Source of the DNA: Candidatus Dormiibacterota bacterium
GTDB taxonomy: Bacteria; Chloroflexota; Dormibacteria; Aeolococcales; Bog-877
Length of the DNA stretch: 64,000 nt
Direction of reading: 5' to 3'
Assembly (NCBI GenBank): GCA_049799515.1
Contig: JBARIA010000028.1
Coordinates: forward strand, 783 to 64,782
Part shown: in pieces, positions 9,098-26,614 of the stretch
Layout of the letters: each line of letters starts with the position of its first letter
Numbering within the stretch: the stretch's first letter is position 1
Notes under the pieces: generated by a model
The model's database searches: none
Told to the model about the DNA's origin: nothing
Seen by the model: only the letters and a program-made list of their open reading frames with translations
Made by a program: the position numbers and the translations under genes

Positions 9098-10369
9098 TTG
9101 TCGATAACGTCCCCTTTGGTGCTAGCCCAATTGGTTCTGCTCGCGCTCTTCCTCTTGACTGCGGCCGCGGTCACGCTCCGACTGTGGCGGATTCCGGAGG
9201 GCTGGTGGCCCATCGCCGCGGTTGTGATCGCCCTGGCGGTCGGGGCGATCCCGGAGGCGACCGCCGCCCGAGGGCTGGGCAGCAGCCTCAATGTCCTGGC
9301 CTTCTTCGCGGGTCTGCTCCTACTGGCCTGGGTCCTGCGGGCGACGGGGTCGATGGTCCGTCTGCTGGATCGGATGGAAGGTTGGAGTGGGGATGACCCG
9401 CGCAGTCTTCTGACGGTAGTGGCGCTCGCCACCGTGGCCGTTACCGCTCTTCTCTCCAATGATGCTGCGGCGTTGCTGCTGGCTCCCGAGGTCCTTGACC
9501 GGCTCCAGCGGCGAGGACTTCCTCTGACGCCCTTCGTACTGACCATGGCTTTCAGCGCCAACGCTGCGTCCGCGCTGCTGCCCATCAGCAATCCCGTCAA
9601 TCTGCTGATCTTGGACCGGTCCAACCTGGCTCTCTCGAGCTACCTGACGGTGGTCACGCCCGGGGCTGTCGTCGGCGTTCTGATCACTGTGGCTGGCTGC
9701 CTACTGCTGACCGGCAGGGGAATTCCTCACCGTCAGCCCGCGGCGGCGGAGACTCCTCAGCAGCCCGCGGTCCATCGCCTCCGGGCCCGATGGGTCGCCG
9801 CCCTGCTGGCCGTCCTGACACTCACTGACGTGGGGTTCGCGGTGGCCCGCCTCCCCATCGGTCCGCCGACGCTTGTTGCGGGAGCACTGGCGACTGGGAT
9901 GATTTGGTCCGCCGCCGGATCCCGCGAACGTCCTCGAGGCTTGGGCTGGTCGATCCTAGCTCTGGTGGCGGGCTTCTCCGTCCTCGCGTCAGGGCTCGGT
10001 CAGTCCCCGTGGCTGGCAAGGGCCGCCGAGTGGTTCGCTGGCTCAGGCTCGATATGGGTGGGTGGGGTCGCCACCGGGTTGGTCACGGCGGTCGTCTCGG
10101 GGGTGATCAACAACCTGCCCGCGGCCCTGCTGGTCACCGCGGGTCTGCAGGCAGCTCACCACCTCGGCGCCCTCACCTTGCCAGCGATCGTGGGCGCAGA
10201 TTTCGGCCCCAACTTGGCCCCCTTCGGGTCTCTCTCCACGATCCTGATCCTCAGCGCCCTCCGGCCCCGGGGCCAACTGGTGCCGTGGGGGCAGGTGTGG
10301 AGGCTCGGGCTGATCTTGGGTCCGCTGGCGCTGCTCCCGACCATCTGCCTGGTGGCGCTCGCCCGCTGA
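9098..10369 (+). CDS. ArsB/NhaD (citrate transporter-like) superfamily permease
   Basis: Polytopic protein with LLSNDAAALLLAP and INNLPAALL motifs typical of the ArsB/NhaD permease fold. Start uncertain (TTG 9098 or GTG 9119). Confidence 0.7.
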   Translation: MSITSPLVLAQLVLLALFLLTAAAVTLRLWRIPEGWWPIAAVVIALAVGAIPEATAARGLGSSLNVLAFFAGLLLLAWVLRATGSMVRLLDRMEGWSGDDPRSLLTVVALATVAVTALLSNDAAALLLAPEVLDRLQRRGLPLTPFVLTMAFSANAASALLPISNPVNLLILDRSNLALSSYLTVVTPGAVVGVLITVAGCLLLTGRGIPHRQPAAAETPQQPAVHRLRARWVAALLAVLTLTDVGFAVARLPIGPPTLVAGALATGMIWSAAGSRERPRGLGWSILALVAGFSVLASGLGQSPWLARAAEWFAGSGSIWVGGVATGLVTAVVSGVINNLPAALLVTAGLQAAHHLGALTLPAIVGADFGPNLAPFGSLSTILILSALRPRGQLVPWGQVWRLGLILGPLALLPTICLVALAR

Positions 10370-11165: not shown

Positions 11166-12041
11166 GTGACCAGACGCGACTGGCTTGCTGCGGAGTTCGA
11201 GCGACACCGTCGGCACCTGCGCGCGGTCGGCTACCGCATGCTCGGATCGGTATCCGAGGCCGAGGACGCCGTGCAGGAGGCCTGGCTGCGGCTCGATCGA
11301 GGCGACCCGGGCGGGACTGATGACCTGCGGGGCTGGCTAACGGTGGTGGTAGGCCGGATCTGCCTGGATACCCTGCGCAGGCGGAAGGCACGCAGGGAGC
11401 AGCTCGCTGGTTCGTGGCTTCCGGAGCCGATCAGTTGCACCGCGGCCGACCACGACCCAGAGCGCGACATAGTTATGGCCGACTCGGTCGGGCTGGCCTT
11501 GCTGGTGGTCCTCGAGTCGCTGACCCCATCGGAGAGGCTCGCGTTCGTGCTTCACGATGTATTCGGCATTCCGTTCCTGGAGATCGCCCCGCTGGTGGAG
11601 CGCTCGCCGTTGGCGACCCGGCAACTCGCCAGCCGAGCCCGGCGACGGGTCAGAGCCGAGGCGCCGGACCCGGACGCCGATTTTGCAGTACAGCGAGGGG
11701 TAGTCGACGCCTTCCTGGCCGCCGCACGCAAGGGCGACTTCGAGGCTCTCCTTCAGGTGCTGGATCCGAACGCCGTCCTCTGCATCGACGGAGGCCCGAA
11801 TGCACCGCGACCGCTCGCGCAACCACCAATCGTCGGTGCCGTGGCTGTGGCAAACGGCGTAAAGAATTTCCGGGATGCCGGGGCCAAGGTCGAGCCAGTG
11901 ATTGTCAACGGCGCTCCGGGGCTGGTGGTTCGGTATCCGGCGCGATCACTCCTCGCCGCCTTCACGGTGGCCAATGGGCGGATCGTCGAAATCGACCTCA
12001 TTGCCGACCCGGACAAGCTGCGGAGTCTGACGCTGGACTGA
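11166..12041 (+). CDS. ECF sigma factor, group ECF41 (SigJ-like) with fused C-terminal regulatory domain
   Basis: Sigma-2 and sigma-4 regions plus the ECF41 signatures WLPEP (linker), DGGPN (DGGGK-like) and DPDKL (NPDKL-like) in a roughly 100-aa C-terminal extension. No anti-sigma gene adjacent. Confidence 0.85.
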   Translation: MTRRDWLAAEFERHRRHLRAVGYRMLGSVSEAEDAVQEAWLRLDRGDPGGTDDLRGWLTVVVGRICLDTLRRRKARREQLAGSWLPEPISCTAADHDPERDIVMADSVGLALLVVLESLTPSERLAFVLHDVFGIPFLEIAPLVERSPLATRQLASRARRRVRAEAPDPDADFAVQRGVVDAFLAAARKGDFEALLQVLDPNAVLCIDGGPNAPRPLAQPPIVGAVAVANGVKNFRDAGAKVEPVIVNGAPGLVVRYPARSLLAAFTVANGRIVEIDLIADPDKLRSLTLD

Positions 12042-15167: not shown

Positions 15168-16187
15168 ATGACGGCACGGGTGACGTCGCCGGAGGTGATC
15201 CGCCGGATCAAGCTGACCATGGTCTGGGGCGTGGCCCTGCTTTGGTTGCTCGATGCCGCCCTTCAGGCGCAGCCAACGATGTTCACGGTCGACTTCGTCA
15301 GCAACATCATGAAGCCGTCGATCGCCATCTCCCCCTCAGCGCTGGGGGCGCTCTCGACCTGGACCCTGCAGTTCATCAGTCCCCACATCGCCGACTGGAA
15401 CTGGCTGTTCGTCATCGTGCAGGCGGCGATCGCGGTGGGCCTGATTACTGGCCTGCTTCGGCACGACCACCGCCTGATTCGAGCTGGACTTCTGCTCTCG
15501 ATTGCCTGGGGAATCGGGGTTTGGGTATTCGGGGAGGGAACCAGCGGAGTCTTCACCGGAAACGGGACACTGCTCACCGGAGCTCCGGGATCGGTCACGC
15601 TCTATGTCGCGATCGCTGTGCTCTACCTGCTCCCCGATCGTTGGTGGCAGCTCTCAGGCCGGTTCTGTCTACCTCGAGACCTGCTCGCATTGGTGTTCCT
15701 GTACGGCGCGGCGGCCCAGATCGCCACCCCTGGGTTTTGGGGCTCCAGGGGCACCGCCGTGTTGATCGAGGGGCAGGCGAGCATGGCACCCTCTTGGATG
15801 GTGGCCTCGATGACCCCACTGGTGACCTATACCCACGCCCATCCCGTCCTCTTCAATGCGGTCTTCGCCGCGTCGCTGTTGGCAGTGGCACTGCTTCTCT
15901 TCGGGCGGGCTCCCAAGGCTATTGGCTTCCTGCTTCTAGGGGCGGTGTTGGGGGTCATGTGGTATTGGGGCCAGGCGTTTGGTGGGATCTTCTCGGGCAT
16001 GGGAACCGATCCTGGTAGTCCGCCTCTGCTGACGCTACTGGCAGTTCCTGCCGTGGTGACCTGGCACTTGCGGCGGCACCCCGTCTCCCTCGAAGCCATG
16101 CCCGGTGGTCCGGCAGCTCGGTTAGTGCGCAGTGAAGCAGCGGCAGCAGCGCAGAGCTCGGCGCTGGCCGACGGTCCCCGGGGATGA
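15168..16187 (+). CDS. polytopic membrane protein, unrecognised family (paralog A of the 20562 membrane domain)
   Basis: About 8 predicted TM segments. Colinear similarity to residues ~75-365 of the 585-aa protein: LQAQP, SIAWG..VWV.GEG, GAPG, GRAP[KR], W.GQ.FG......TDP..SPLL. Confidence 0.8.
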   Translation: MTARVTSPEVIRRIKLTMVWGVALLWLLDAALQAQPTMFTVDFVSNIMKPSIAISPSALGALSTWTLQFISPHIADWNWLFVIVQAAIAVGLITGLLRHDHRLIRAGLLLSIAWGIGVWVFGEGTSGVFTGNGTLLTGAPGSVTLYVAIAVLYLLPDRWWQLSGRFCLPRDLLALVFLYGAAAQIATPGFWGSRGTAVLIEGQASMAPSWMVASMTPLVTYTHAHPVLFNAVFAASLLAVALLLFGRAPKAIGFLLLGAVLGVMWYWGQAFGGIFSGMGTDPGSPPLLTLLAVPAVVTWHLRRHPVSLEAMPGGPAARLVRSEAAAAAQSSALADGPRG

Positions 16188-16231
16188 GTCCAGCTGGCCC
16201 GTTGGAGACGGGAGAGTTCTGAGAGTGGCCT

Positions 16232-16987
16232 TTAGCGTGGCAGCAGCGGCAGTCCGTCGGAGTCCAGCGCGGTCAGTCGGATGGGGGAGAAGCCGGTGAC
16301 TCCCAGCCGGCCGCCGGCTCGCCGCAGAGTTGAATTGGCGGACGCGAGATTTTGGGCGGCCCATCCCGCCTGCCGGAGGTAGGCGGTGGCGGCACTTTGA
16401 TCTCCTGGGCGGCGCAGTAACTCCTCCTCATTTCGCATGGCGGGAACTACGTCCTCCTCGGCCCACACCCCAAGGCAGCTGACCGCGTAGCCGAGGTGCA
16501 GCGCCGAAAGCGAAGTTGGCACCGCGTACAGAGTGAGATCGAAGATGGCATCGTCGGTGCCGGGTGAGCAGGCGCGGACGGTGGCCCGAGCCGCTCTCTC
16601 GGCCGGGATCGCAGAATCGGGCTGTTGTTCCGTCAGCCGCCAAGTCGAGATCGCGGTCGCCGCCCGGGAGTTGCAACCAGCCAGGTCGGCTCGGAGAGTT
16701 CGCACCATGGTTGTGAAATCGGATCGTTGCTGGGCAGCCCCGGCAGGTCGGCTGACCAGGATCGCCGCACCGACCGCCACCAAGGTGATCACGACCACCG
16801 CTACTGCCAGCCAGCGCCAGCGGCGCAGAGTGCGACCGAGCGGGGGAGACCCCGAGCCAGGCACTGGAGACGACAAGGACGGTTTCCGCTCTGTGCTCAC
16901 CGTGCTCCTCCCACGAAGAGTCGGCAGCGGCGGGCAGGGCGAGGGGTCTGGAGATCGGGGAGGGCTGCCGCCGGCTCGTCTCGGCAC
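16232..16987 (-). CDS. hypothetical N-terminally membrane-anchored protein downstream of copA
   Basis: Pro-rich N-terminus, one TM segment (WLAVAVVVITLVAVGAAILV), then a 170-aa domain with 4 Cys. Lies 21 nt downstream of the copA stop. Confidence 0.6.
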   Translation of the reverse strand: MPRRAGGSPPRSPDPSPCPPLPTLRGRSTVSTERKPSLSSPVPGSGSPPLGRTLRRWRWLAVAVVVITLVAVGAAILVSRPAGAAQQRSDFTTMVRTLRADLAGCNSRAATAISTWRLTEQQPDSAIPAERAARATVRACSPGTDDAIFDLTLYAVPTSLSALHLGYAVSCLGVWAEEDVVPAMRNEEELLRRPGDQSAATAYLRQAGWAAQNLASANSTLRRAGGRLGVTGFSPIRLTALDSDGLPLLPR

Positions 16988-17008
16988 ACGCCGGACGGTG
17001 GCCGGTGG

Positions 17009-19429
17009 CTACTCCGCGAAGTCAGGGAGCGCTCGAACCGGTCCCCCCGACGCCGCGGCAGCCAGTTGGGGTCGAGGTGGGCCCGGCGACCCCTCGAAGT
17101 GTCGCAGCCGGGAGCTGTTCCATACCACGAACGCCGAGGAAAGGGCCATGGCTCCGCCGGCGATCAGGGGATCCAGCCGACCTAGGGCGGCGAGAGGAAT
17201 GGCGATTACGTTGTATCCGAAGGCCCACATCAGATTGCCGCGGATGGTGCGGATGGTTCGGCGTGCCAGTCGGAGGGAATCCGGGACGACTCTGAGATCG
17301 TCGCGGACCAGGATCAGGTCGGCAGCGTTGATCGCGACATCCGTCCCCGAGCCGATCGCCAGCCCCAGATCGGCCTGAACCAGGGCTGGACCGTCGTTGA
17401 CTCCATCGCCGACCATGGCCACCGAGTGGCCTCGCGCCTGCAACTCCCTGACGATCCTGACCTTCTCCGTCGGCAGGGCACCAGCGACCACATCGTGGAT
17501 CCCGACCTCGGCGGCGACGGATCGAGCGGTCGCCTCGTTGTCCCCGGTCACCAAGATGCAGTGGAGTCCCAGCTGCTGCAACTCCCGGACCGCCGGAGCG
17601 GCCGACGGCTTGATCACGTCGGCGACCGCCAGCGCTCCCACGGTCTGACCATCCCGGGCCACCAGGACCGTGGTGTGGCTCATCACCTCCCAGCTGCGGC
17701 ACTGGGCGGCGATCTCCTTCGGGATGCTGACCCCTTGCTCCTGGAGGAGCTTTTGCCTGCCCACCAGCAGCCAGCGGCCGTCCACCATTCCACTAGCTCC
17801 GAGCCCGGCCAGGCTCTGGAAGTCAGCTGGTTGCGGCAGCTCCGGGAATTCGGAGCGAGCGGCGGCCGTGAGGGCCGCCGCAACCGCGTGCTCGCTGGCC
17901 TGCTCCAGGGCTCCGACCTCGTGCAGCACGCTGGCGCGGTCGACCCCGGGAACCGTGATCAGCCCTGCCAACTCCATCTTGCCTTGGGTAACCGTGCCGG
18001 TCTTGTCCAGAACCACTGTGTCAACGGTTCTGGAAGTCTCGAGACCCTGGTGCCCCTTGAAGAAGATCCCCAGTTGGGCGCCCCGCCCGGAGGCGACCCG
18101 CAGGGCTGCCGGGGTTGCCAGACCCAGGGCGCAGGGGCAGGCGATGATCAGCACGGCTAAGGCGGCGCTGAAGGCGGACTCCAAGGATCCCGAGAGCAGC
18201 ATCCAGACGATGAAGGTGAGGATCGCGCCGGCGATCACCGTCGGCACGAAAACAGCCGAGATCCGATCCGCCAGGCGCTGTACCGAGGCCTTCTGGAGCT
18301 GGGCCTGCTCGACCAGTTCGACCATGTGTGCCAGCTGGGTGTCTCCTCCAAGCTTGGTGGCCTTGACGATCAGCCGGCCGGTCACCACCACGGTCCCTCC
18401 TAGGACTCGGCGCCCCTCGAGGACGTCGATCGGAACCGACTCTCCAGTCATCGAACTGCAGTCGACCGCCGACTGGCCCAGCACTACCCGTCCGTCGGTG
18501 GCGATCGTCTCGCCCGGGCGGACGATGAACCGATCTCCCAGGCGGAGCTGGGCCACCGGAAGTCGCCGCTCGGAATCGTCGTCCTGGAGGATCGATACGT
18601 CCTTGGCCCCCACGGCAGCCAGCGCTCTGAGGGCATTGCCGGCCCGCCGGCGAGCTCGGGCCTCGAAGTAGCGCCCGGCGAGCAGGAAGGTGGTGACCCC
18701 AGCCGCGACATCCAGGTAGAGGGCTCCGCCCCCTTGATGGAGCAGGACGTAGAGCCCGGAGCGGCCCGGCTCACTGAAGTCCCTGAAGAACATCGCGTAG
18801 AGCGACCAGCTGGTGGCGGCGATGATTCCCATCGAGACCAGGGTGTCCATGGTCGAAGTTCCGTGCCGCGCGGCCCGGAGGGCGGCCCTGTGGAACGGCC
18901 AGGCTGCCCACAACACGACCGGAGCGCCCAGGGCGATGAACAACCACTGCCAGCCGGGAAAGCGCAGCCAGGGAAGCAGTGAGAAGGCTGTCGACCACTC
19001 GCCGAGCGGCATGAAGAGGAGAGCGGCCACCAGCAGTCGCCGTCCCAGGTACCGTACTCGCCGGTCATCTTCGGCCGCGTCGTCGTCGTCGCTGTGGCTG
19101 CTGCCAGCCAGCTCTGCCCCGTACCCCACCGCCTCCACTCGCTTGATCAGGAGAGGGATCGGTACCTCGGAGAAGAGAGAGACGGTCGCCCGCTCCGAGG
19201 CGTAGTTGACCTGGGCGCTCACGTGGTCGAGCTGGTTGAGGCTCCGCTCGATCTTGGCGGCGCAGGCGCCGCAACTCATCCCGCGGATCGTGAGTTGGAG
19301 CTGCCGAAATTGCGGGCCTGGCTCTTCACCGACCGGGGCCACCGCCACCGCCTCGCCTTGAGGGGGGGCCGCCTGGTCGGCGAGACCGGTTGCCGGATGA
19401 ACTCCGGGGTTCTCGGAGATTTCCTTCAT
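17009..19429 (-). CDS. copA: copper-translocating P1B-type ATPase
   Basis: N-terminal HMA domain GMSCGACAAKIE, CPCALGLATP transmembrane metal site, DKTGTVT phosphorylation site, and GDGVNDGPAL. Confidence 0.95.
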   Translation of the reverse strand: MKEISENPGVHPATGLADQAAPPQGEAVAVAPVGEEPGPQFRQLQLTIRGMSCGACAAKIERSLNQLDHVSAQVNYASERATVSLFSEVPIPLLIKRVEAVGYGAELAGSSHSDDDDAAEDDRRVRYLGRRLLVAALLFMPLGEWSTAFSLLPWLRFPGWQWLFIALGAPVVLWAAWPFHRAALRAARHGTSTMDTLVSMGIIAATSWSLYAMFFRDFSEPGRSGLYVLLHQGGGALYLDVAAGVTTFLLAGRYFEARARRRAGNALRALAAVGAKDVSILQDDDSERRLPVAQLRLGDRFIVRPGETIATDGRVVLGQSAVDCSSMTGESVPIDVLEGRRVLGGTVVVTGRLIVKATKLGGDTQLAHMVELVEQAQLQKASVQRLADRISAVFVPTVIAGAILTFIVWMLLSGSLESAFSAALAVLIIACPCALGLATPAALRVASGRGAQLGIFFKGHQGLETSRTVDTVVLDKTGTVTQGKMELAGLITVPGVDRASVLHEVGALEQASEHAVAAALTAAARSEFPELPQPADFQSLAGLGASGMVDGRWLLVGRQKLLQEQGVSIPKEIAAQCRSWEVMSHTTVLVARDGQTVGALAVADVIKPSAAPAVRELQQLGLHCILVTGDNEATARSVAAEVGIHDVVAGALPTEKVRIVRELQARGHSVAMVGDGVNDGPALVQADLGLAIGSGTDVAINAADLILVRDDLRVVPDSLRLARRTIRTIRGNLMWAFGYNVIAIPLAALGRLDPLIAGGAMALSSAFVVWNSSRLRHFEGSPGPPRPQLAAAASGGPVRALPDFAE

Positions 19430-19714
19430 AGCCGACCTGCCAAGGCGCTCGGCACCCGGTCTGAGAGCTCAGCCGAACTGATCGACCAGCTGAGCACAGG
19501 GGCTCCGGTCGAGGTCCGGAGGCTAGACCCAGACCCGTTCTCTGCTGAGCGGATACCGGCGGTTCCGATCACGATGCGATCTACTCTAACGAGGGCAGAG
19601 TTGGCCGGTCGACTGTGGTGGCACCTCCTATGCCGTGGACTGGGCCCCCCCTTCCGACCGAATGCCCCGCTGGCGGCAGATTTCCGAGGACCCCAGCGCC
19701 GCTGGCCACCGAGC

Positions 19715-20350
19715 TCAGGTGAAAAGTTGGGGCCACTGGGTGACGGTGAGCATCAGCATCATCGAGAAAGCGATCGTGAAGTCGCCGTTGGTGCCTAGAG
19801 TCCTGAGCGACGGGCGGTCCCCGCGGCTCGCGGCGGGGGCCCCCGAGGCCCGGCGGGCCGCGCTCAGGGTGCTGCCGATGAAGCCTAGGTAGATGACCAA
19901 GCAGGCGATGGTTATCCCGGAGACGCTAGTCGCCGAAAACATGTAAGCCATCGACGCGTTGATGAAAAGATGCCAGCACTCACTGCTTCGATCGCAGGAA
20001 TTCCAGCGAACAATCAGCCGGATCAGAAAAATTCCAGCAAACACTGCGAATGCGACAACATAGCCCAGCAGTGGACCGAGGTACGGAATGGTGCCGATCA
20101 TCAGCAGTGCCATGCCGATCATGCCCACGGCGTGGACTGTGTGACCCAAAAGATCGGGGAGTGTGTGATAGCGGGCGATGTGTCCGCGCTGTAGATATCG
20201 CCAGATGAAGATGAACAGAACGTAGGAGGAAAGAATGACAACGATGATCAGAGCCAGCTCGATGACGGGAGGTCCCGACTGAGAATGTGATGGAGGAACT
20301 GACGATGCGCACCCCGGCATCACCATGCCAGGCATGCACTCGGCTTTCAT
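19715..20350 (-). CDS. membrane protein with Met/Cys-rich N-terminus (DUF5134-like, tentative)
   Basis: MKAECMPGMVMPGCASS... followed by 5-6 TM segments with conserved His. Lies in a markedly lower-GC patch. Confidence 0.7.
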   Translation of the reverse strand: MKAECMPGMVMPGCASSVPPSHSQSGPPVIELALIIVVILSSYVLFIFIWRYLQRGHIARYHTLPDLLGHTVHAVGMIGMALLMIGTIPYLGPLLGYVVAFAVFAGIFLIRLIVRWNSCDRSSECWHLFINASMAYMFSATSVSGITIACLVIYLGFIGSTLSAARRASGAPAASRGDRPSLRTLGTNGDFTIAFSMMLMLTVTQWPQLFT

Positions 20351-20561
20351 CGATCACTTCTCCCCAATTGGCGCACGCTCCCTCGACGTCATCGCCAAGA
20401 CGCGACCATCGGGGTAGAGCACCGAAGCGTCGCTTCCACGCAGCTCGGCGCTGAAATGATAGACGCCGGAAGTTCGGCCGTCGCTCCGATCGTCCCAATT
20501 GGAGCCCAGAGTATTATGGCTGGTGCCGACTGGGGCCACAGTCTAGGGACCGGGGACCGAA

Positions 20562-22319
20562 ATGCCTGGGATGGGAAACTACGGTACAGAGACCATTGGG
20601 GGCTTCTACCCGTACCTCTTCATAGACCTGCTGATCATTCTGGGATTGGTCTGGGTTTGTTGGGGAGTGCAGGTCGGCTTCCGCTACCTGGACGAGCGCG
20701 AGGGTCGAGTCCTCGACAAGGCTTCCCAGGCGACTCCCAGCCCGATTCCTCTGATCCCGGCGCGACTCTTCCTCCGTCGGGCGATCGGGATCATCTGGAT
20801 CGCCGATGGGCTGCTCCAGGCCCAACCGGCGATGCCCGGGGGATTCGCCAAGAACGTGGTGGCGCCGCTGGCCGCCGGTCAGCCGCACCTGCTGGCCAAC
20901 CTACTGAACTGGGAAGTCTACTTCTGGCAGGCTCACCCCCTAGACCTGGCGGTTGCCACAGTGTTCATTCAAGTCGGCATTGGGGTGGCCATCCTGGCGG
21001 GCGGCGACTCTCCCCTGGGCAAGTTCGGACTGTGGGCCTCGATCGCCTGGGGGCTCTTCGTCTGGGTAGGAGGGGAGGGGCTCGGAGGCATTTTGATCTC
21101 CGGCACCACTGAGCTGATGGGAGCTCCAGGGGCGGTGCTGGTCTATGTCGCCGCGGCCGGCCTGCTGCTGGCGCCCCGGCGAATCTGGGAGAGCGGTCGA
21201 GCCTATCGGGGAATCCGCATCGGCGTCGGGGCTGTTCTTCTGCTTGGCGCACTCCTGCAGGCGATCCCCTGGGAGGGGTTCTGGACAGGGCACGGCCTCA
21301 GCGCGATGTTCTTGGCGATGGCGGGGGTCCCCCAACCAGGCTTCCTGTCCGGCCCGGTGCTGGCCGTCGCCCACCTGGCTCGATCCCAGCCGATCCTCCT
21401 GAATTCCGTCTTCATCGCCGTGATGTTGGCGCTCGGGTCTGGCCTTATCCTGGGGCGCGCGCCCAGGCGCTGGACCATCGCGACGCTGGTCTGGCTGGCG
21501 ATCACCTGGTGGATCGGACAAGACTTTGGCGCCCTCGGCAGCAAGACGGCCACCGATCCCAATCTCTCTCCCTTGCTGGCGGTGATGCTGGTCTGCGCCT
21601 GGATCGGCACCCGGCCTCAGCCGGCGGTGAGTCGGGTTGAGAAGGTCTCGGGTCGGGTGATCGGCTTACGCCGGACGGCGGCTCTGGGCGGGCTGCTCGC
21701 CCTGGGGGTGGCGATGGTTCCGGTGCTGCTCGGGCTGCCGGTGGCGGCGGCCCAGTCGGCGACCATCGAGGCCCTGAACACGGGCGGGAGCCTGGACCCG
21801 GTTAGCAATCAGAGCCTCCCTGATCTGACGCTGGTCAATCAGAACGGCCGCACGGTTGACCTGCGCCAGTGGTCGAACAAAGTGGTGGTGCTGACCTTCC
21901 TGGATCCGCTGTGCTACTTCCAGTGTCCGATCGTCGCCGAGCAGGTCGCCCAGGCAGATCGGCAATTGGGCCCACTTGCCAAGCAGGTGGAGTTCGTCGC
22001 GGTAGTGGCGAACCCCATTTACCACAGTATTTCGGTGGTCCGGGACTTTGACTCGACCACGCTTGTGAATCGCTTGCCCAACTGGGAATACCTCACCGGC
22101 TCGCTCTCCCAGCTGGAGCGCGTCTGGTCCGATTTCTCGTTACCCATTGAGATCCCCCGCTTGGACATGGTGGAGCACCCCACGGTGCTCTATTTCGTCA
22201 AGCCTGGTGGGCAGGAGGTCAGCCTGGCTCAGGATGCGGCGCTCAGCCAGGCCAGCGTCATAACTTCATACGCGTCGCTGATAGACCAGCAGGTCAAGTC
22301 GATCATTAGTGGTCAGTGA
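20562..22319 (+). CDS. fusion of unrecognised polytopic membrane domain (paralog B) with C-terminal SCO1/SenC thioredoxin-like copper chaperone domain
   Basis: Residues ~75-365 are homologous to the 15168 product. The C-terminal domain has VVVLTFLDPLCYFQCP (CxxxC) and a downstream His (EHPTVLYFV), as in SCO proteins. Confidence 0.85.
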   Translation: MPGMGNYGTETIGGFYPYLFIDLLIILGLVWVCWGVQVGFRYLDEREGRVLDKASQATPSPIPLIPARLFLRRAIGIIWIADGLLQAQPAMPGGFAKNVVAPLAAGQPHLLANLLNWEVYFWQAHPLDLAVATVFIQVGIGVAILAGGDSPLGKFGLWASIAWGLFVWVGGEGLGGILISGTTELMGAPGAVLVYVAAAGLLLAPRRIWESGRAYRGIRIGVGAVLLLGALLQAIPWEGFWTGHGLSAMFLAMAGVPQPGFLSGPVLAVAHLARSQPILLNSVFIAVMLALGSGLILGRAPRRWTIATLVWLAITWWIGQDFGALGSKTATDPNLSPLLAVMLVCAWIGTRPQPAVSRVEKVSGRVIGLRRTAALGGLLALGVAMVPVLLGLPVAAAQSATIEALNTGGSLDPVSNQSLPDLTLVNQNGRTVDLRQWSNKVVVLTFLDPLCYFQCPIVAEQVAQADRQLGPLAKQVEFVAVVANPIYHSISVVRDFDSTTLVNRLPNWEYLTGSLSQLERVWSDFSLPIEIPRLDMVEHPTVLYFVKPGGQEVSLAQDAALSQASVITSYASLIDQQVKSIISGQ

Positions 22320-23506
22320 CCTCGGGCCCGGGCAAGCCATGGTGGCGGACATGGCGCGCCTGGATCCTTCCCGCTGTGCTGGGCCTGGGCTTGGTGATTC
22401 TCGGGATCAGCCTTCTCCCGGTGGCACCTGTGGCTCCCACCACGGCTACCCTACCCGACACCGCGGCGGGGAAGCTCGTCGAGAAGATCGAGACCATCGA
22501 CTACCCAACTCCCCAGGTGGGCTGGGCCTTGGTCGCAGCTTCACCCTATTGGAAGCTGGTGAGAACCGTCGATGCCGGCGGGAAGTGGCAGGATGTCAAC
22601 CCCGCCGGTGACGCGAGCCGCGGCGGCGTCGTCCTGACTGTGATGGGTCCTGAAGCGGCGGCGGTGGTTATTCTCCCCTTCGAATACATCCGCGACTCCG
22701 CGTTCGCCGTTACCACCGACGGTGGCGCCCGATGGAGTGCCGGCGTCCTTCCCAATGGGGCATCCTCCGGGCCGGACCCGATCTTCGCTCTCAGCGCTCA
22801 GCGGATCTTCGCTGTGCTTGGGAGCGGGACCGTTGTCGCCAGCACCGACGGGGGTGGCCAGTGGGCGACTGTGAATCTTCCGGCGCTGGCATCGGGTACA
22901 TGCACGCCGACATCTATCTGGTTCACAGCGCCAGCCAGTGGGTGGGTTACTGGCAGCTGTACTGGGGTCGCTGCGCTATGGCACAGCAGCGATGCTGGTC
23001 AATCCTGGCAATCGGAGGTGCTGTCCAGTACCTACGGGAGTTCCACTCCTGTCTCGGTGGCCCCGCCACAGGCCACCCCTTCTGGCGGCGCGCTGACGAC
23101 CACGGTGGCCACTGTCGGCAGCACCGAGTCGCTGCGGGTCTTTGATGACTCGTCGGGAAGCTGGCGGGCGGCGCCAGCTTTGTCCCTGCCTGCGGGCCGG
23201 GTGCTGGTATCGTTCGCCAACCCGTCCGATGGCTGGGTGGTGGTCGCGCCCCGGGCAACCGGTGCCCTCGCCCTCGCCTATTACACCTCGAGTGAGGGCA
23301 ACTACTGGTCGGTGAGGACTACCCCAATTTCCGCTGGTCAGGTTACCGGCCTCGACCTAAGTTCTTCGGAAAACGTCGTGGCGCTGGCTCAGGCAGGTCG
23401 TGTCCACCTGCTCTGGACCAGCAGCAACGCCGGAGTCAAGTGGACCAGTTCCGAGTTGACGATCGTCAACGGACCGGCCCCGGTGGTCAACGGAATCACG
23501 CCCTGA
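22316..23506 (+). CDS. N-terminally anchored BNR/Asp-box beta-propeller protein (Ycf48-like)
   Basis: TM anchor, then at least five Asp-box-like repeats (TVDAGGKW, TTDGGARW, STDGGGQW, SSDAGQSW, SSNAGVKW). GTGA overlap with the SCO fusion gene. Confidence 0.8.
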   Translation: MTSGPGKPWWRTWRAWILPAVLGLGLVILGISLLPVAPVAPTTATLPDTAAGKLVEKIETIDYPTPQVGWALVAASPYWKLVRTVDAGGKWQDVNPAGDASRGGVVLTVMGPEAAAVVILPFEYIRDSAFAVTTDGGARWSAGVLPNGASSGPDPIFALSAQRIFAVLGSGTVVASTDGGGQWATVNLPALASGTCTPTSIWFTAPASGWVTGSCTGVAALWHSSDAGQSWQSEVLSSTYGSSTPVSVAPPQATPSGGALTTTVATVGSTESLRVFDDSSGSWRAAPALSLPAGRVLVSFANPSDGWVVVAPRATGALALAYYTSSEGNYWSVRTTPISAGQVTGLDLSSSENVVALAQAGRVHLLWTSSNAGVKWTSSELTIVNGPAPVVNGITP

Positions 23507-23581: not shown

Positions 23582-24907
23582 TCACTCCTCCGCATCGTTG
23601 GTCTGGCTCGCCGGGCCGGCGGGCCTTGCTCCAACCAGTAGCCTGATCGGGCGATCCACCGCGACGTAGTCCCAGGCCCAGTTCATCAGGGTGACGACCC
23701 TGGCCCGGAAGGTCAGGATGTTGACCAGGTGCACCACCAGCCAGAGCACCCAGCCGATGAAGCCGCTGAACTGAAGCGGTCCGATCTGGGCGATCCCCGA
23801 GTTCCGCCCGACCGTGGCCATGATCCCTCGATCGTGGTATCGGAGATTGGCCACCGGCTGGCCCTTCGTCATGGCTTCGATGTTGCGGGCCGCCAGCCGG
23901 GCCTGCTGGATGGCCACCTGGGCGAGCATCGGAAGGTCGTCCAAGACGGCGAGGTCTCCGATCACCATCACCTCGGGATGTCCCGCCAATTGCAGTGTCG
24001 AGCTAACCGGAACTCGACCGGCCCGGTCCGGATCAACCCCGAGCTTCTTCCCCAGGGGAGCTCCGCAGACGCCGGCGGTCCACACCACCGAGGAGGTGGG
24101 GACGACCCGGCCATCGAGCAGGACCAACCGATCGCTCTCGATGCTCTGGACCGGGCTGTTCAGCAGCACCTGGACCCCCCTACGGATCAGAGATCGGGTG
24201 GCGGCCCGGCGAAGGCCCGGCTTGAAGGCTCCCAGCAATTCATCGGCGGCCTCGACCAGTAGCACCTGAGACGCCGAGATGTCGACGCCCCTGAAGTCCT
24301 TGGTGAGCACCAGGTGGATCAGCTCCAGCAGTGCGCCGGCGAACTCCACTCCGGTGGGGCCACCGCCGACCACCGCGAAGGTGATCAGCTGGGCCCGGCG
24401 CTCTGGGTTGGTCTCCCAGCTGGCCATCTCGAATCGTTGCAGGACCCAGTTGCGCAGGGTGAGGGCGTCAGGGAGCGTCTTCAACCCCAGGGAGTGCTGT
24501 TCTAGGGTGTGGTTACCGAAGTAGTTGCTGACACTGCCGGCGGCGATCACCAGATAGTCATATGGGATCCGGCCCTGGTCAGTCTCGATGAAGTGGTGAT
24601 CAAGGTCCACATCCGAAACCTCCGCCACATGGAAGGTGCAGTTGCGAATCCGGCGCACCAACTTACGCACCGGCTGGGCAATCTCCGAAGGGTTCAGCAG
24701 CGAGGAGGCCACCTGGTAGAGGAGGGGGGTGAAGAGGTGGTAGTTGCGCTGGTCCAGCAGGGTCACGTCGACCCGGGCCCGCTTCAGGCTACGGGCTAGC
24801 GTGAGACCGGCGAAGCCTGCCCCAACGACGACCACGCGCGGTCGGCTAGCCGTGGTTGGCGCCTGGGTAATGAGGGCAGTCGCCGGTTCGCGATCCACTC
24901 TGGCCAT
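23582..24907 (-). CDS. ndh: type II NADH dehydrogenase (NDH-2)
   Basis: VVVVGAGFAGL and FAVVGGGPTGVEFAG dinucleotide folds, GDLA motif. Start is probably ATG 24907 or GTG 24898 after AAGGAG, rather than 25000. Confidence 0.85.
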   Translation of the reverse strand: MARVDREPATALITQAPTTASRPRVVVVGAGFAGLTLARSLKRARVDVTLLDQRNYHLFTPLLYQVASSLLNPSEIAQPVRKLVRRIRNCTFHVAEVSDVDLDHHFIETDQGRIPYDYLVIAAGSVSNYFGNHTLEQHSLGLKTLPDALTLRNWVLQRFEMASWETNPERRAQLITFAVVGGGPTGVEFAGALLELIHLVLTKDFRGVDISASQVLLVEAADELLGAFKPGLRRAATRSLIRRGVQVLLNSPVQSIESDRLVLLDGRVVPTSSVVWTAGVCGAPLGKKLGVDPDRAGRVPVSSTLQLAGHPEVMVIGDLAVLDDLPMLAQVAIQQARLAARNIEAMTKGQPVANLRYHDRGIMATVGRNSGIAQIGPLQFSGFIGWVLWLVVHLVNILTFRARVVTLMNWAWDYVAVDRPIRLLVGARPAGPASQTNDAEE

Positions 24908-25084
24908 CTCCTTGGAGTCAGTTAAGCAGCTTCGTATTGGAGTTTGACTCGGTCCACAGAAGTGGCCGGCCTGGTATCGGCGGATGTCCATCTCGCCCAC
25001 TCGGCGAACCCGAAAAAGGAGTGTCCCCCCGGTCCGTTGACCGGGGGGACACCAGATGCTGTCAGCTTATCCGGATGGAGGGGA

Positions 25085-26614
25085 TCAGCCTGCCGGGCCG
25101 GTGCCCAGGGTCACCGAGGCCGTGTGGCTGGTGTCACTGGAGTCGACCCAGGTCAATGAGATGGTCTGGCCGGGCTTGGCGCTTTCGATCACGGTTGAGA
25201 GTGAGGCCTCGGTGGTGATGGTGGTGCCGTTGGCTGCGGTGATGACGTCACCTGCCACCAGGCCGGCGGACGAGGCCGCCGTTTGGGCGATGACAGAGGT
25301 GATCAAGGCTCCCGAATCGACTGGAGGAGTGTACTGGCCGTAGCTTCCGCCGTAGCCGCCCGGCCCGCTGCTGCTCGCGCTGCTGGCGTTCTCGACGTCA
25401 ACTCCGAGGAAGGCGGGAAGGCCCAGGTGGACGGTGGAGCTGCCTTGCCCCTGCTGGATCTCGCTGGCGATTGACAGGGCGGTGTTGATCGGAATCGAGA
25501 AGCCCACCGTCGAACACTCGCTCGAGGAGGAGCCGGTGTAGGCAGCCGTATTCATCCCGATCACCTGACCGGCTGAGTCGGCTAGCGGTCCTCCGGAGTT
25601 CCCCTCGCAGAGCGAGGCGTCACTCTGCAGGAGTCCGGTGAGATTCTCGCTGCTCTCATTGCCCTCGTCGCTGGCGGTGATAGATCGGTCGAGGTTGGTG
25701 ATGGCCCCGCTGGTGACGGTTGGCTTGCCGGGCAGATCGAGCGCGTTGCCGATGGCGACTACGGGCAGGCCTACGGAGAGGTCCGACGAATTACCGACCG
25801 GGATCGTTTTCAACCCAGAGGCGTTCTCGAGTTGCAGCAAGGCGACATCCTGAGTGTCGTCGTAGCCGACCACCTTGGCGGTGTACTTGGTTCCGGCTCC
25901 GTCGACCTGGGCGGTGATGCTGGTGGCTCCGTTGATAACGTGATTGTTGGTCAACACCTCGCCGTTCGAGGTCAGGATCATGCCGGTGCCGGCCGAGGTG
26001 GCGTTCTGATCGCCGTCGACCGCGGTGATGTCTACCACCCCGGGCTCGACCTTGGCGGTTACCGCTGACACATTCAGGGTTCCGGTCTTGGCCGTCACCC
26101 CTGACGACGCCGCCGGCTTGGGGATTGGCTGGTTTGCCAGCGGGGCGTTGCCGGAGTTGCCGAGCCGGTAGCCGACAAAGCCCACGCCCACCAGGATTGC
26201 CAGCACAGCCACCCCGGCGCCCGCGCGCCTTCCCCAACTGGGACCTCCGGAGCCTGGCGTACCGAGGGCGTCGACGATCTGAGGCGGTCCCGATCCGCCT
26301 GGGGGAGGGGAGAAGGGCCCTGCGAACTCCGCGTTGGGACCCTGACTGGGCACCGGCCCCGACGACTCGGGCTGGGCCGGAGGTGTCCACGGGACTGAGC
26401 CGGGAGCAGCCTCGGGAGGCTGGGGGACCGGGTTTTCGGGTTGGGGATCGGAGTTGCTGTCCACTGGTCTGGCACCTATCTTGCGCGCGTCCCGGCTCAG
26501 GTCGAAGGCGGGAACTTCGCTTGGTTGCTCTGTGCTTAGGCTTTGACTTTGCTCCCTCCAGATTGGATTAGTGTGAGAGAAACCTGGGAAGACGTCGAGA
26601 ATTCCAACTCGCAC
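25085..26614 (-). CDS. S1C (HtrA/DegP-like) serine protease with C-terminal PDZ domain
   Basis: Pro-rich N-terminus, TM anchor, catalytic motifs TNNHV / DVALL / GNSGGPL, and a PDZ-like tail. Start uncertain. Confidence 0.9.
   Translation of the reverse strand: MRVGILDVFPGFSHTNPIWREQSQSLSTEQPSEVPAFDLSRDARKIGARPVDSNSDPQPENPVPQPPEAAPGSVPWTPPAQPESSGPVPSQGPNAEFAGPFSPPPGGSGPPQIVDALGTPGSGGPSWGRRAGAGVAVLAILVGVGFVGYRLGNSGNAPLANQPIPKPAASSGVTAKTGTLNVSAVTAKVEPGVVDITAVDGDQNATSAGTGMILTSNGEVLTNNHVINGATSITAQVDGAGTKYTAKVVGYDDTQDVALLQLENASGLKTIPVGNSSDLSVGLPVVAIGNALDLPGKPTVTSGAITNLDRSITASDEGNESSENLTGLLQSDASLCEGNSGGPLADSAGQVIGMNTAAYTGSSSSECSTVGFSIPINTALSIASEIQQGQGSSTVHLGLPAFLGVDVENASSASSSGPGGYGGSYGQYTPPVDSGALITSVIAQTAASSAGLVAGDVITAANGTTITTEASLSTVIESAKPGQTISLTWVDSSDTSHTASVTLGTGPAG

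Follow-up and report, generated by a model that had tools for sequence, protein, structure and literature searches.

Eight-helix membrane proteins of a family without a database model are associated with extracytoplasmic copper proteins in Dormibacterota and Actinomycetota

What is the role of a membrane protein of no recognised family that is encoded on both sides of a copper ATPase gene? The question is raised by a stretch of 64,000 nucleotides from contig JBARIA010000028.1 of a Candidatus Dormiibacterota metagenome-assembled genome (MAG), hereafter called the window, in which copA lies between two open reading frames (ORFs) for polytopic membrane proteins, A (15168-16187, plus strand, 339 amino acids (aa)) and B (20562-22319, plus strand, 585 aa), both of which were found at these coordinates. 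In a preliminary description of this DNA, A and B were taken as paralogs of an unrecognised family, B being fused to a SCO1/SenC domain, and their shared membrane domain was taken as a copper-handling module. The family of inner-membrane proteins with eight transmembrane (TM) segments that holds A and the core of B is given here the working name FAM. FAM serves copper-binding and redox metalloproteins outside the cytoplasm as a dedicated partner in the membrane; these proteins are either tethered to it via one extra TM segment or encoded alongside, and FAM has a periplasm-facing polar site.

A and B were aligned by BLASTP over 285 aa with 35% identity (E = 3e-30), residues 15-295 of A being colinear with residues 68-346 of B. 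All the blocks named in the preliminary description were seen in the alignment (LLWLLDAALQAQP/IIWIADGLLQAQP; SIAWG..VWV.GEG; L.GAPG.V.YVA; GRAP[KR]; W.GQ.FG...TDP..SPLL), and the paralogy was confirmed. A is a stand-alone member and is 100% identical to a hypothetical protein of an NCBI Dormibacterota MAG. No match to Pfam or NCBIfam was obtained for A; B matched Pfam only in its SCO/thioredoxin-fold domain and NCBIfam nowhere, and a sequence-profile search of the Protein Data Bank (PDB) with the family alignment gave 0 matches at E<=10. Relatives numbered 87 by single-sequence search and at least 1,412 by profile search, and 3,445 FAM clusters at 50% identity were obtained with HMMER from 1.84 billion representatives at E<=1e-3 (1,216 at E<=1e-30). 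The sources are Dormibacterota, Solirubrobacterales, Conexibacter, other Thermoleophilia, other Actinomycetota and Chloroflexi, with Conexibacter sp. DBS9H8 (L089) as a cultured host. FAM is a large family without a model in Pfam, NCBIfam or PDB sequences, and it is new to the databases queried. The family was rightly called unrecognised in that respect; DoxX, which had been excluded at the same time, turned out to be the sole family with recurrent sub-threshold support.

The AlphaFold2 (AF2) model of A, with a predicted local distance difference test score (pLDDT) of 89.8 and a predicted template modelling score (pTM) of 0.85, contains eight TM helices, of which TM1 and TM5 are each followed by a helical hairpin on the periplasmic side. 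The Lys and Arg residues of A number 10 in 51 cytoplasmic-loop residues versus 2 in 115 periplasmic-loop residues, from which an N-in/C-in topology follows. TM1-4 and TM5-8 are homologous to each other (HHalign probability 99.8%, E = 4e-28, 138 columns), and the FAM domain is therefore a tandem duplication of a ~150-aa four-TM unit, represented in A by an N-terminal repeat (residues 8-162, 15189-15653, plus strand) and a C-terminal repeat (residues 163-306, 15654-16085, plus strand), both delimited by conservation and HHalign.

Conservation was computed over 136 diverse members and is given in A numbering. At least 95% conserved were W26, D29 (95%), L32, Q33, Q35, M38, P56, Q85 (100%), W114, W119, E123 (100%), G138, P140, G141, Y146, P156, G272, T280 and D281, and the family motifs are WLLDxxLQxQPxMF, VWWFGEGxGG, LTGAPG and ATDPN. 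The N-terminal repeat of A holds the invariant polar set D29, Q33, Q35, M38, Q85, E123, GAPG 138-141 and Y146; the polar invariants lie on the periplasmic half of this repeat, and the cytoplasmic half of the domain has no conserved polar residue. The C-terminal repeat is degenerate, with Q for E123 and TDPN for GAPG, and keeps G272, T280, D281 and P282. The mapping of Met and His residues that had been proposed as a check went against the idea of soft copper ligands, since no His is conserved (best column 58%), M38 is the sole conserved Met and the best Cys column reaches 13%. The Met/His loop of A (MAPSWM...THAH), read in the preliminary description as a source of Cu(I) ligands, does exist, and it is conserved among close A orthologs only; as a ligand site it was rejected because it is unconserved across the family, the invariants of which are Asp, Glu, Gln, Tyr, Thr and Trp. 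A 338-aa divergent neighbour in one locus (L002) was considered as a family paralog and rejected.

The membrane core of B (residues 68-346, 20763-21599, plus strand), defined by alignment and modelled with a pLDDT of 80-96, is a FAM domain in which all the invariants are present (W79, D82, Q86, Q88, M91, Q137, E172, GAPG, T331 and D332). It is preceded by an N-terminal extension (residues 1-67, 20562-20762, plus strand) with an MPGMG start, an extra TM helix (15-54) and a basic cytoplasmic linker, which is kept in the FAM-SCO1 fusions P0055 and P0059, and it is followed by a linker with TM9 (residues 347-410, 21600-21791, plus strand) and a domain with CYFQC and a distal His (residues 411-585, 21792-22319, plus strand). 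This C-terminus belongs to SCO1/SenC: residues 423-550 matched SCO1-SenC (PF02630) above the gathering score (E = 4.4e-7, 30.3 bits versus a cut-off of 22.8), CYFQC aligned to C45/C49 and VEHPT to H135 of Bacillus subtilis Sco, and in a Foldseek search with the full-length model of B this thioredoxin-fold domain was placed on Sco1, ScoI and BsSco with a probability of 1.0 and a target-normalised template modelling score (TMt) of 0.65-0.72. The SCO fusion with one extra TM segment was thereby borne out by Pfam, alignment and structure comparison. TM9 itself (residues ~367-410, window 21660-21790) lies between the core and the SCO domain, and since the C-terminus of the core is in the cytoplasm, B needs TM9 to place SCO outside. 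In the structure model, a linker pLDDT below 50 and a whole-protein pTM of 0.64 indicate that the linker and TM9 are a flexible tether. TM9 of B also resembles an internal signal peptide (RRTAALGGLLALGVAMVPVLLGLPVAAAQS; RR, hydrophobic core and AxA-like VAAAQS), and several other FAM fusions have a lipobox at the equivalent position. Judged from these signals, insertion might be followed by cleavage that releases the periplasmic domain or by its attachment to a lipid anchor.

In the census of fusions and neighbours, FAM was found fused to SCO1 (P0055, P0059, P0061, P0072 and P0087), to PCuAC (P0058), to CopC, to YtkA, to a multicopper oxidase (MCO) domain and, in six proteins, to P19/Iron_transport with DUF7350. 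Among the 149 top representatives, 107 were stand-alone and 27 had unannotated C-terminal extensions, laid out as a linker, a segment that is TM or resembles a signal peptide (with a lipobox in several), a Met-rich tract (e.g. MPGMSMPGM) and a globular Cys/His domain of two recurrent unannotated types; neither CxxCH (haem c) nor heavy-metal-associated (HMA) motifs were found in any FAM extension. The type I domain is lipoprotein-like, of ~140 aa, and stands after a Met-rich tract at the C-termini of P0238, P0298, P0307 and P0333, with the pattern ARMVC...Y.C.Y...LVLSV...LGLP.YQ...FLKD..L.VDAT...IL.CW.GK. The type II domain is a periplasmic domain of ~250 aa that follows Met-rich tracts at the C-termini of P0234, P0254, P0283 and P0344, with the motifs GHxMQTPxC, VHYxNP, MPGGCLTQWHxHTNLC, GFxPC and MLHVWxVPVPGG. 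No Pfam match was obtained for either type.

The neighbours pointed the same way as the fusions. In the 80 Thermoleophilia loci, a gene for P19 was located within 8 kb of FAM in 66, for DUF7405 in 56 and for SCO in 42, and the dominant co-directional order (~63 of the 80) was FAM, P19, DUF7405 and, in part, SCO. In 80 soil and peat metagenome loci (L098-L177), which represent another FAM branch than the Thermoleophilia set, the type II domain was fused to FAM in 10 and encoded directly upstream in 10, and PCuAC, SCO and CopA occurred in 3 loci each. FAM is strongly linked to extracytoplasmic copper proteins by association, as was to be learned from the census that the preliminary description had called for; the association was present in other genomes, and no confident match to a non-metal family was obtained. 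The copper-handling module proposed there stands on this association and not on the ligand argument; FAM may itself bind or transport copper, or it may service copper proteins, for example by redox chemistry.

Several further genes of these loci were recorded. DUF7405 (~425 aa; L002:9611-10882, L008:7312-8601, L005:9787-11061) has a twin-arginine signal and a weak DyP_C match, and its gene comes after a gene of the Met-substituted P19 type described below in 56 of the 80 Thermoleophilia loci; from these features it is probably a divergent dye-decolorizing peroxidase (DyP)-like haem protein exported by the twin-arginine translocation (Tat) pathway. An ORF of ~200 aa is located directly upstream of FAM and co-directional with it in 22 of the 80 loci (L016-L086, e.g. 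L019:7300-7929), without a Pfam match and unrelated to DUF5134. A long SCO (~465 aa) with an N-terminus weakly like Metal_resist was seen in L002:11059-12468 and L005:11102-12493, and pairs of extracytoplasmic function (ECF) sigma and anti-sigma factors (zf-HC2/RskA) were seen near FAM in L002, L005, L011 and L097; the long SCO and these pairs may be a regulatory arm. Single cases were a cupredoxin gene followed by the ECF sigma/anti-sigma pair in L097, a PQQ-sulfocyanin protein in L010 and a cytochrome c gene that ends 11 bp upstream of the FAM gene in L096.

The P19 proteins of these operons bear on which metal is handled. Canonical FtrA/FetP/P19 proteins have a copper site and an adjacent acidic iron site formed by Glu3, Glu44, Asp46 and Asp92 (PMC9174327). 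In the operon P19s (loci L012-L091, e.g. L023:8998-9666 and L008:6674-7315), the copper ligands His42, Met88 and His95 were each kept in 66 of 69 proteins, and Met was found for Glu44 in 67, for Asp46 in 54 and for Asp92 in 63 of the 69, with the motifs HLMVML and WPM(L/I)SxxMGPHYG versus the canonical HLEADI and MPMVANDGPHYG. These proteins are a variant of the P19 fold without the combination of a copper site and an acidic iron site that defines the iron type, and by their residues they probably bind Cu(I) at two sites and do not shuttle iron. Because Met occupies the positions of the iron-site carboxylates, the FAM-P19 system appears to be Cu(I)-oriented, which speaks against an Ftr1-like role in iron uptake, and the reading of FAM as an Ftr1-like iron permease was rejected on this ground.

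In the window, the genes between A and B are those that the preliminary description had listed: copA, a Cys-containing anchored protein and a Met/Cys-rich membrane protein, the last of which was identified as DUF5134. The DUF5134 gene (19715-20350, minus strand, 211 aa, Met/Cys/His-rich) was assigned by Pfam with 34.9 bits versus a cut-off of 29 and lies upstream of copA on the same strand. DUF5134 proteins have an N-terminal CMxGMxMPGC (CMPGMVMPGC in the window), predicted to be periplasmic, and the TM motifs HxxHxxGMxGM, WHxFxNASMAYMF and SMMLML, and from these motifs DUF5134 would seem to be a membrane protein that binds or transports Cu(I). Its genes were also found at L009:11246-11881, L094:8156-8791, L095:8151-8786 and L058:6832-7896; it is adjacent to FAM in ~9 of the 80 Thermoleophilia loci and fused to FAM in one representative. 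In L094 and L095, from two other Dormibacterota genomes, genes for a ~210-aa protein, CopA and DUF5134 are located on one strand, and those for FAM-SCO and a Ycf48-like protein, which overlap by 4 bp, on the other. In L009, a second DUF5134 paralog (41% identity, E = 8e-59, with the same CMxGMxMPGC motif) adjoins the A ortholog. DUF5134 is the most persistent FAM partner and pairs with both FAM paralog lineages. In one of the two sister genomes, this A ortholog is ~330 kb from the B/copA cluster. The flanking of copA by both paralogs, true of the window, is thus a trait of this MAG alone; what is conserved is the pairing of FAM with DUF5134 and that of B with copA, in a unit of B, DUF5134, copA and the gene for the 251-aa anchored protein.

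A distant relationship of FAM to the DoxX, MauE, DoxD and HTTM proteins, which we take to belong to one Pfam clan (DoxD-like), was suggested by several comparisons. Sub-threshold Pfam matches were obtained for 13 of 138 members, namely 7 to DoxX_3 (best 6e-5), 4 to DoxX and 2 to MauE, and no unrelated family recurred more than twice among the matches listed. The DoxX_3 match that was seen in detail covered model positions 22-69 of 102 (E = 0.53) and lay on the equivalent TM6-TM7 hairpin. When the model of A was compared with the PDB by Foldseek, three entries of the vitamin K gamma-carboxylase GGCX (HTTM), the one coherent target, were obtained with probabilities of 0.77-0.93 and query-normalised scores (TMq) of 0.38-0.42 over 313-327 columns, and all other PDB matches had a TMq below 0.2. 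E. coli YqjF and YphA were both aligned by the family hidden Markov models (HMMs) in a single register, in which Q85 corresponds to DoxX E55, the TM2 Glu. The same proteins are matched by overlapping DoxX, MauE and SURF4 models, and the only secondary Pfam match of the GGCX HTTM domain is DoxX, in the same model region. MauE is a 4-TM protein with a TM1 Lys and a TM2 Glu near a docked quinone and an active CXC in the periplasmic TM3-TM4 loop, and the most conserved FAM loop is at the position of that loop; 8% of MauE proteins are fused to thioredoxin (Trx)-fold partners, and DoxX genes are core members of bufferin and oxazolin clusters encoding periplasmic copper chelators. Like FAM, which has the unit as a tandem pair, the DoxX-type proteins have an N-in 4-TM unit, polar residues in the first two TM segments and, on the periplasmic side, a conserved loop between TM3 and TM4, and their partners are also periplasmic redox proteins (Trx-fold proteins with MauE, DoxA with DoxD, DoxX in bufferin clusters). 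FAM differs in being duplicated to 8 TM segments and ~290 aa, in lacking CXC and in having motifs of its own.

The relationship is weakened by a number of other results. In place of the DoxX-type TM1 Lys and TM2 Glu, FAM has Asp (D29) and Gln (Q85), and no member among the 138 was shown to pass the Pfam gathering score for a DoxX-type family. The GGCX matches had E values of 0.26-0.7, and in the search with the B model the SCO matches filled the list and masked the membrane domain. Consensus scans against Pfam with the whole domain, the halves and a merged 4-TM unit gave no DoxX and a weak DUF6041 match (E = 0.009). HHalign against 122 enterobacterial DoxX sequences, an alignment too shallow for a fair comparison with an effective number of sequences (Neff) of 1.6, gave a probability below 1%, yet was colinear across TM1-TM4, and HHalign against the TM domain of a single GGCX sequence gave nothing. 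In addition, A and B themselves had no DoxX, MauE, DoxD or HTTM match at E<=10, HHalign against two E. coli DoxX proteins was not significant, and no sequences bridging to DoxX-type families were present among the fetched loci. On balance, it is about as likely as not that FAM is a distant member of the DoxX-type superfamily.

The reading of FAM that we prefer, with a probability of about 0.4, is that of a quinol-linked redox site serving periplasmic copper proteins. Each repeat would be a very distant, Cys-less quinone-binding bundle of DoxX/MauE/HTTM type, and the N-terminal one would form an outer-leaflet pocket from D29 (TM1), Q85 (TM2), E123 with the Gly/Pro-rich mobile loop after TM3, and Y146, with M38 at the surface. 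Menaquinol would be oxidised at this pocket and its electrons passed to a metal centre presented by the partner; in the simplest case, Cu(II) held on hard oxygen and nitrogen ligands (Asp, Glu and Gln) would be reduced to Cu(I), which would then be captured by a soft-ligand partner, such as the Cys-Cys-His site of SCO, the Met tracts, the Met-substituted P19 or DUF5134. In the window, B might provide its own SCO with Cu(I), or condition Cu(I) for it, beside the DUF5134-CopA export/uptake pair, A being a stand-alone copy. Quinone binding, electron transfer and the direction of the copper redox step are what we infer in this proposal. It would account for a FAM without soft ligands beside partners that are uniformly of Cu(I) type, for the pairing with DUF5134 (by the logic of Fre1 and Ctr1), for the occasional non-copper redox partners and for the DoxX genes in bufferin and oxazolin clusters. 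Weighing on the other side, FAM has no Cys relay, haem ligands or evident cofactor site, we know of no precedent for direct quinol-to-Cu(II) chemistry in a DoxX-type fold, and neither cytochrome c nor cupredoxin, each a single case among the neighbours, was seen again in the 80 metagenome loci. Adjacency to a type II NADH dehydrogenase (NDH-2) gene was rejected as general evidence, as it is confined to Dormibacterota but for 1 of the 80 Thermoleophilia loci. The operon slot of FAM, moreover, is one that is held elsewhere by CopD or EfeU, and a permease fits it equally well. The narrower proposal that bacteria have in FAM a first dedicated quinol:Cu(II) reductase, a generator of Cu(I) at the outer face of the cytoplasmic membrane that would feed SCO, PCuAC, the Met-substituted P19, Met-rich lipoproteins and DUF5134, is unlikely as it stands; in yeast, Cu(I) is supplied in a parallel manner, by the Fre1 reductase feeding Ctr1.

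A permease in that slot would be a non-homologous replacement of CopD (YcnJ/SLI_4212) or of Ftr1/EfeU/FetM, in which copper captured by the partner would pass through a site of D29, Q85, S111, E123 and D281 between the parallel repeats and cross the membrane, for import or hand-off. FAM is the only conserved polytopic membrane protein of the operon with P19, the DyP-like protein and SCO, in which no Ftr1 or other permease recurs, and it occurs with all three partner classes of characterised systems, which are P19/FetP with Ftr1/FetM, the Tat-exported DyP EfeB with EfeU, and the MCO Fet3 with Ftr1. FAM shares with EfeUOB, FetMP/P19-cFtr1 and Fet3-Ftr1 the arrangement of a membrane protein, a P19, Tat-exported DyP or MCO, and a thioredoxin-fold accessory (FetE/F versus SCO). 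Proteins of the CopD type (YcnJ; SLI_4212) are likewise polytopic and have CopC, YtkA, Sco, PCuAC-like chaperones and a Tat-exported DyP as fusion partners or as products of neighbouring genes, and the Streptomyces lividans operon sco-ecuc-SLI_4212 (putative copper transporter)-dtpA, called EfeUOB-like and 'tailored towards Cu trafficking' by its authors, is a component-for-component match. The CopC and YtkA fusions also mimic YcnJ, the architecture of which is general knowledge, the Met-rich tracts beside the membrane domain recall the ectodomain of Ctr1-type importers, and the invariant acidic residues and the Q85/S111/W114 cluster near mid-membrane fit a single central cation site. Set against this, FAM has no sequence similarity to CopD, the mechanism of which is itself putative, and no conserved His or Met motifs; the CopD model (PF05425) was absent among the matches listed at E<=10 (all 19 families of one set and the best 25 of 43 of the other), no FTR1/OFeT HMM was among the matches listed, and no RExxE motif is present in the family consensus. 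No weak match to CopD, FTR1, NRAMP or ZIP was among the matches listed for the 138 members, the one weak family signal being to the DoxX type and not to a transporter family, and to our knowledge no DoxX-type protein is a transporter. The TM helices lack soft ligands (Cys, His and Met motifs), yet all partners are of Cu(I) type; the acidic iron site of the associated P19 is replaced by Met, and iron is thus probably not the cargo. The cytoplasmic half lacks a conserved polar residue for a path through the membrane, a cytoplasmic metal-binding domain is never fused to FAM, and DUF5134, with its His/Met motifs in TM segments, co-occurs with FAM as a more natural Cu(I) conduit. A permease is the main rival reading and is regarded as possible, though on the unlikely side.

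The diversity of the partners, for which tethering by one flexible TM segment and linker is the only constant, would instead suit a non-catalytic docking platform on which chaperones, DUF5134 and possibly CopA are concentrated for direct passage of Cu(I), the periplasmic face being a protein interface; many extensions resemble captured lipoprotein signal peptides, and deletion of the analogous SLI_4212 in S. lividans gave no phenotype. A single TM segment or a lipid anchor is enough for anchoring, however, and most SCO, PCuAC and P19 proteins are anchored in this way; 107 of the 149 representatives have nothing fused to them, and buried polar residues and Gly/Pro loops that are invariant across three phyla and 3,445 clusters are typical of a catalytic or ligand site, so that a mere scaffold seems improbable. 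Thiol chemistry, in which a quinone or quinol would act on the CxxxC of the fused SCO as in DsbB, VKOR or MauE, has its own parallels. DsbB and the VKOR-thioredoxin fusions are quinone-linked 4-TM bundles servicing a periplasmic thioredoxin-fold domain, sometimes via an extra TM segment, and FAM-SCO recalls the VKOR-Trx and MauE-Trx fusions; the CxxxC of SCO is redox-active, and TlpA-ScoI is a known thiol-reduction pair (PDB 4txo was among the Foldseek matches). DsbB and VKOR nevertheless depend on Cys pairs, of which FAM has none conserved, its best Cys column being the 13% given above, and most partners (P19, PCuAC and the Met-rich domains) have no disulfide to service. Menaquinol, by established redox potentials, is too weak to reduce the SCO disulfide. 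A DsbB/MauE-like thiol oxidase was rejected for want of conserved Cys, and thiol oxidoreduction by FAM in general is very improbable.

The remaining features of the window were as follows. The 251-aa protein (16232-16987, minus strand) has a single TM segment and three conserved Cys and gave no Pfam or NCBIfam match; its homologs, with 47-49% identity, come after copA in L094 and L095, and the gene travels with copA. The product of copA (17009-19429, minus strand) is a P1B ATPase of Cu(I) type, in which Pfam recognised E1-E2_ATPase (5e-51), Hydrolase and, at the N-terminus, a single HMA domain (6e-11); the motifs GMSCGAC and CPC are present in its translation. The divergent intergenic region between DUF5134-copA and B (20351-20561) was compared with those of L094 and L095, and a conserved -10-like GTATTATGG was found ~45 nt 5' of B. 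A perfect palindrome, CCAATTGG, is present at 20363-20371 and 20494-20502 in this 212-bp divergent promoter region, with a third copy at 9126-9134 (3 copies in 64 kb versus ~0.6 expected); the pair was rejected as an operator, which it probably is not, since the corresponding intergenic regions of L094 and L095 lack it. As the preliminary description had noted, no metal regulator is visible: none was found among the 14 window ORFs scanned with Pfam, small ORFs having been searched non-exhaustively. The sole regulator-like gene near the locus encodes an ECF-type sigma factor with a C-terminal SnoaL_2 (11166-12041), 3 kb 5' of A. Downstream of B, a Ycf48/BNR-like beta-propeller protein of 396 aa (22316-23506, plus strand; Pfam PSII_BNR 2e-8) is encoded with a start that overlaps the stop of B by 4 bp, as also in L094:10752-11942 and L095:10752-11954, thus in three Dormibacterota genomes; this gene, which encodes in a non-phototroph a homolog of an assembly factor of photosystem II, is apparently co-translated with the SCO fusion, and no Ycf48-like gene was found near FAM in the Thermoleophilia loci. 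NDH-2 (window 23582-25000) and an HtrA-like protease (25085-26614) are encoded 3' of the B cluster, and likewise in L094 and L095, where they are followed by a glutaredoxin-fused pyridine-nucleotide disulfide oxidoreductase.

In operons of the Sco/PCuAC/CopC type, a membrane component is a known functional slot, and FAM fills it with an architecture that is unrelated and may derive from DoxX. The finding bears on the supply of copper, in the right oxidation state, to periplasmic chaperones and on the role of polytopic proteins in sco/copCD-type operons, and it concerns a family of ~3,400 clusters in soil Actinomycetota, Dormibacterota and Chloroflexota with a simple, testable set of invariant residues. 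Were FAM a permease, it would be a new copper transporter family. Were it redox-active, copper trafficking outside the cytoplasm would be connected with the quinone pool, and the presence of DoxX in copper-chelator clusters might find an explanation; if it were a Cu(II) reductase, the DoxX genes of the bufferin, oxazolin and GIG copper clusters would do the same service, and the DoxX fold would be a general quinone-pool interface for periplasmic metal redox. In either case, the family brings with it further uncharacterised partners, namely the Met-substituted P19, DUF5134 and two new Cys/His/Met-rich periplasmic domains.

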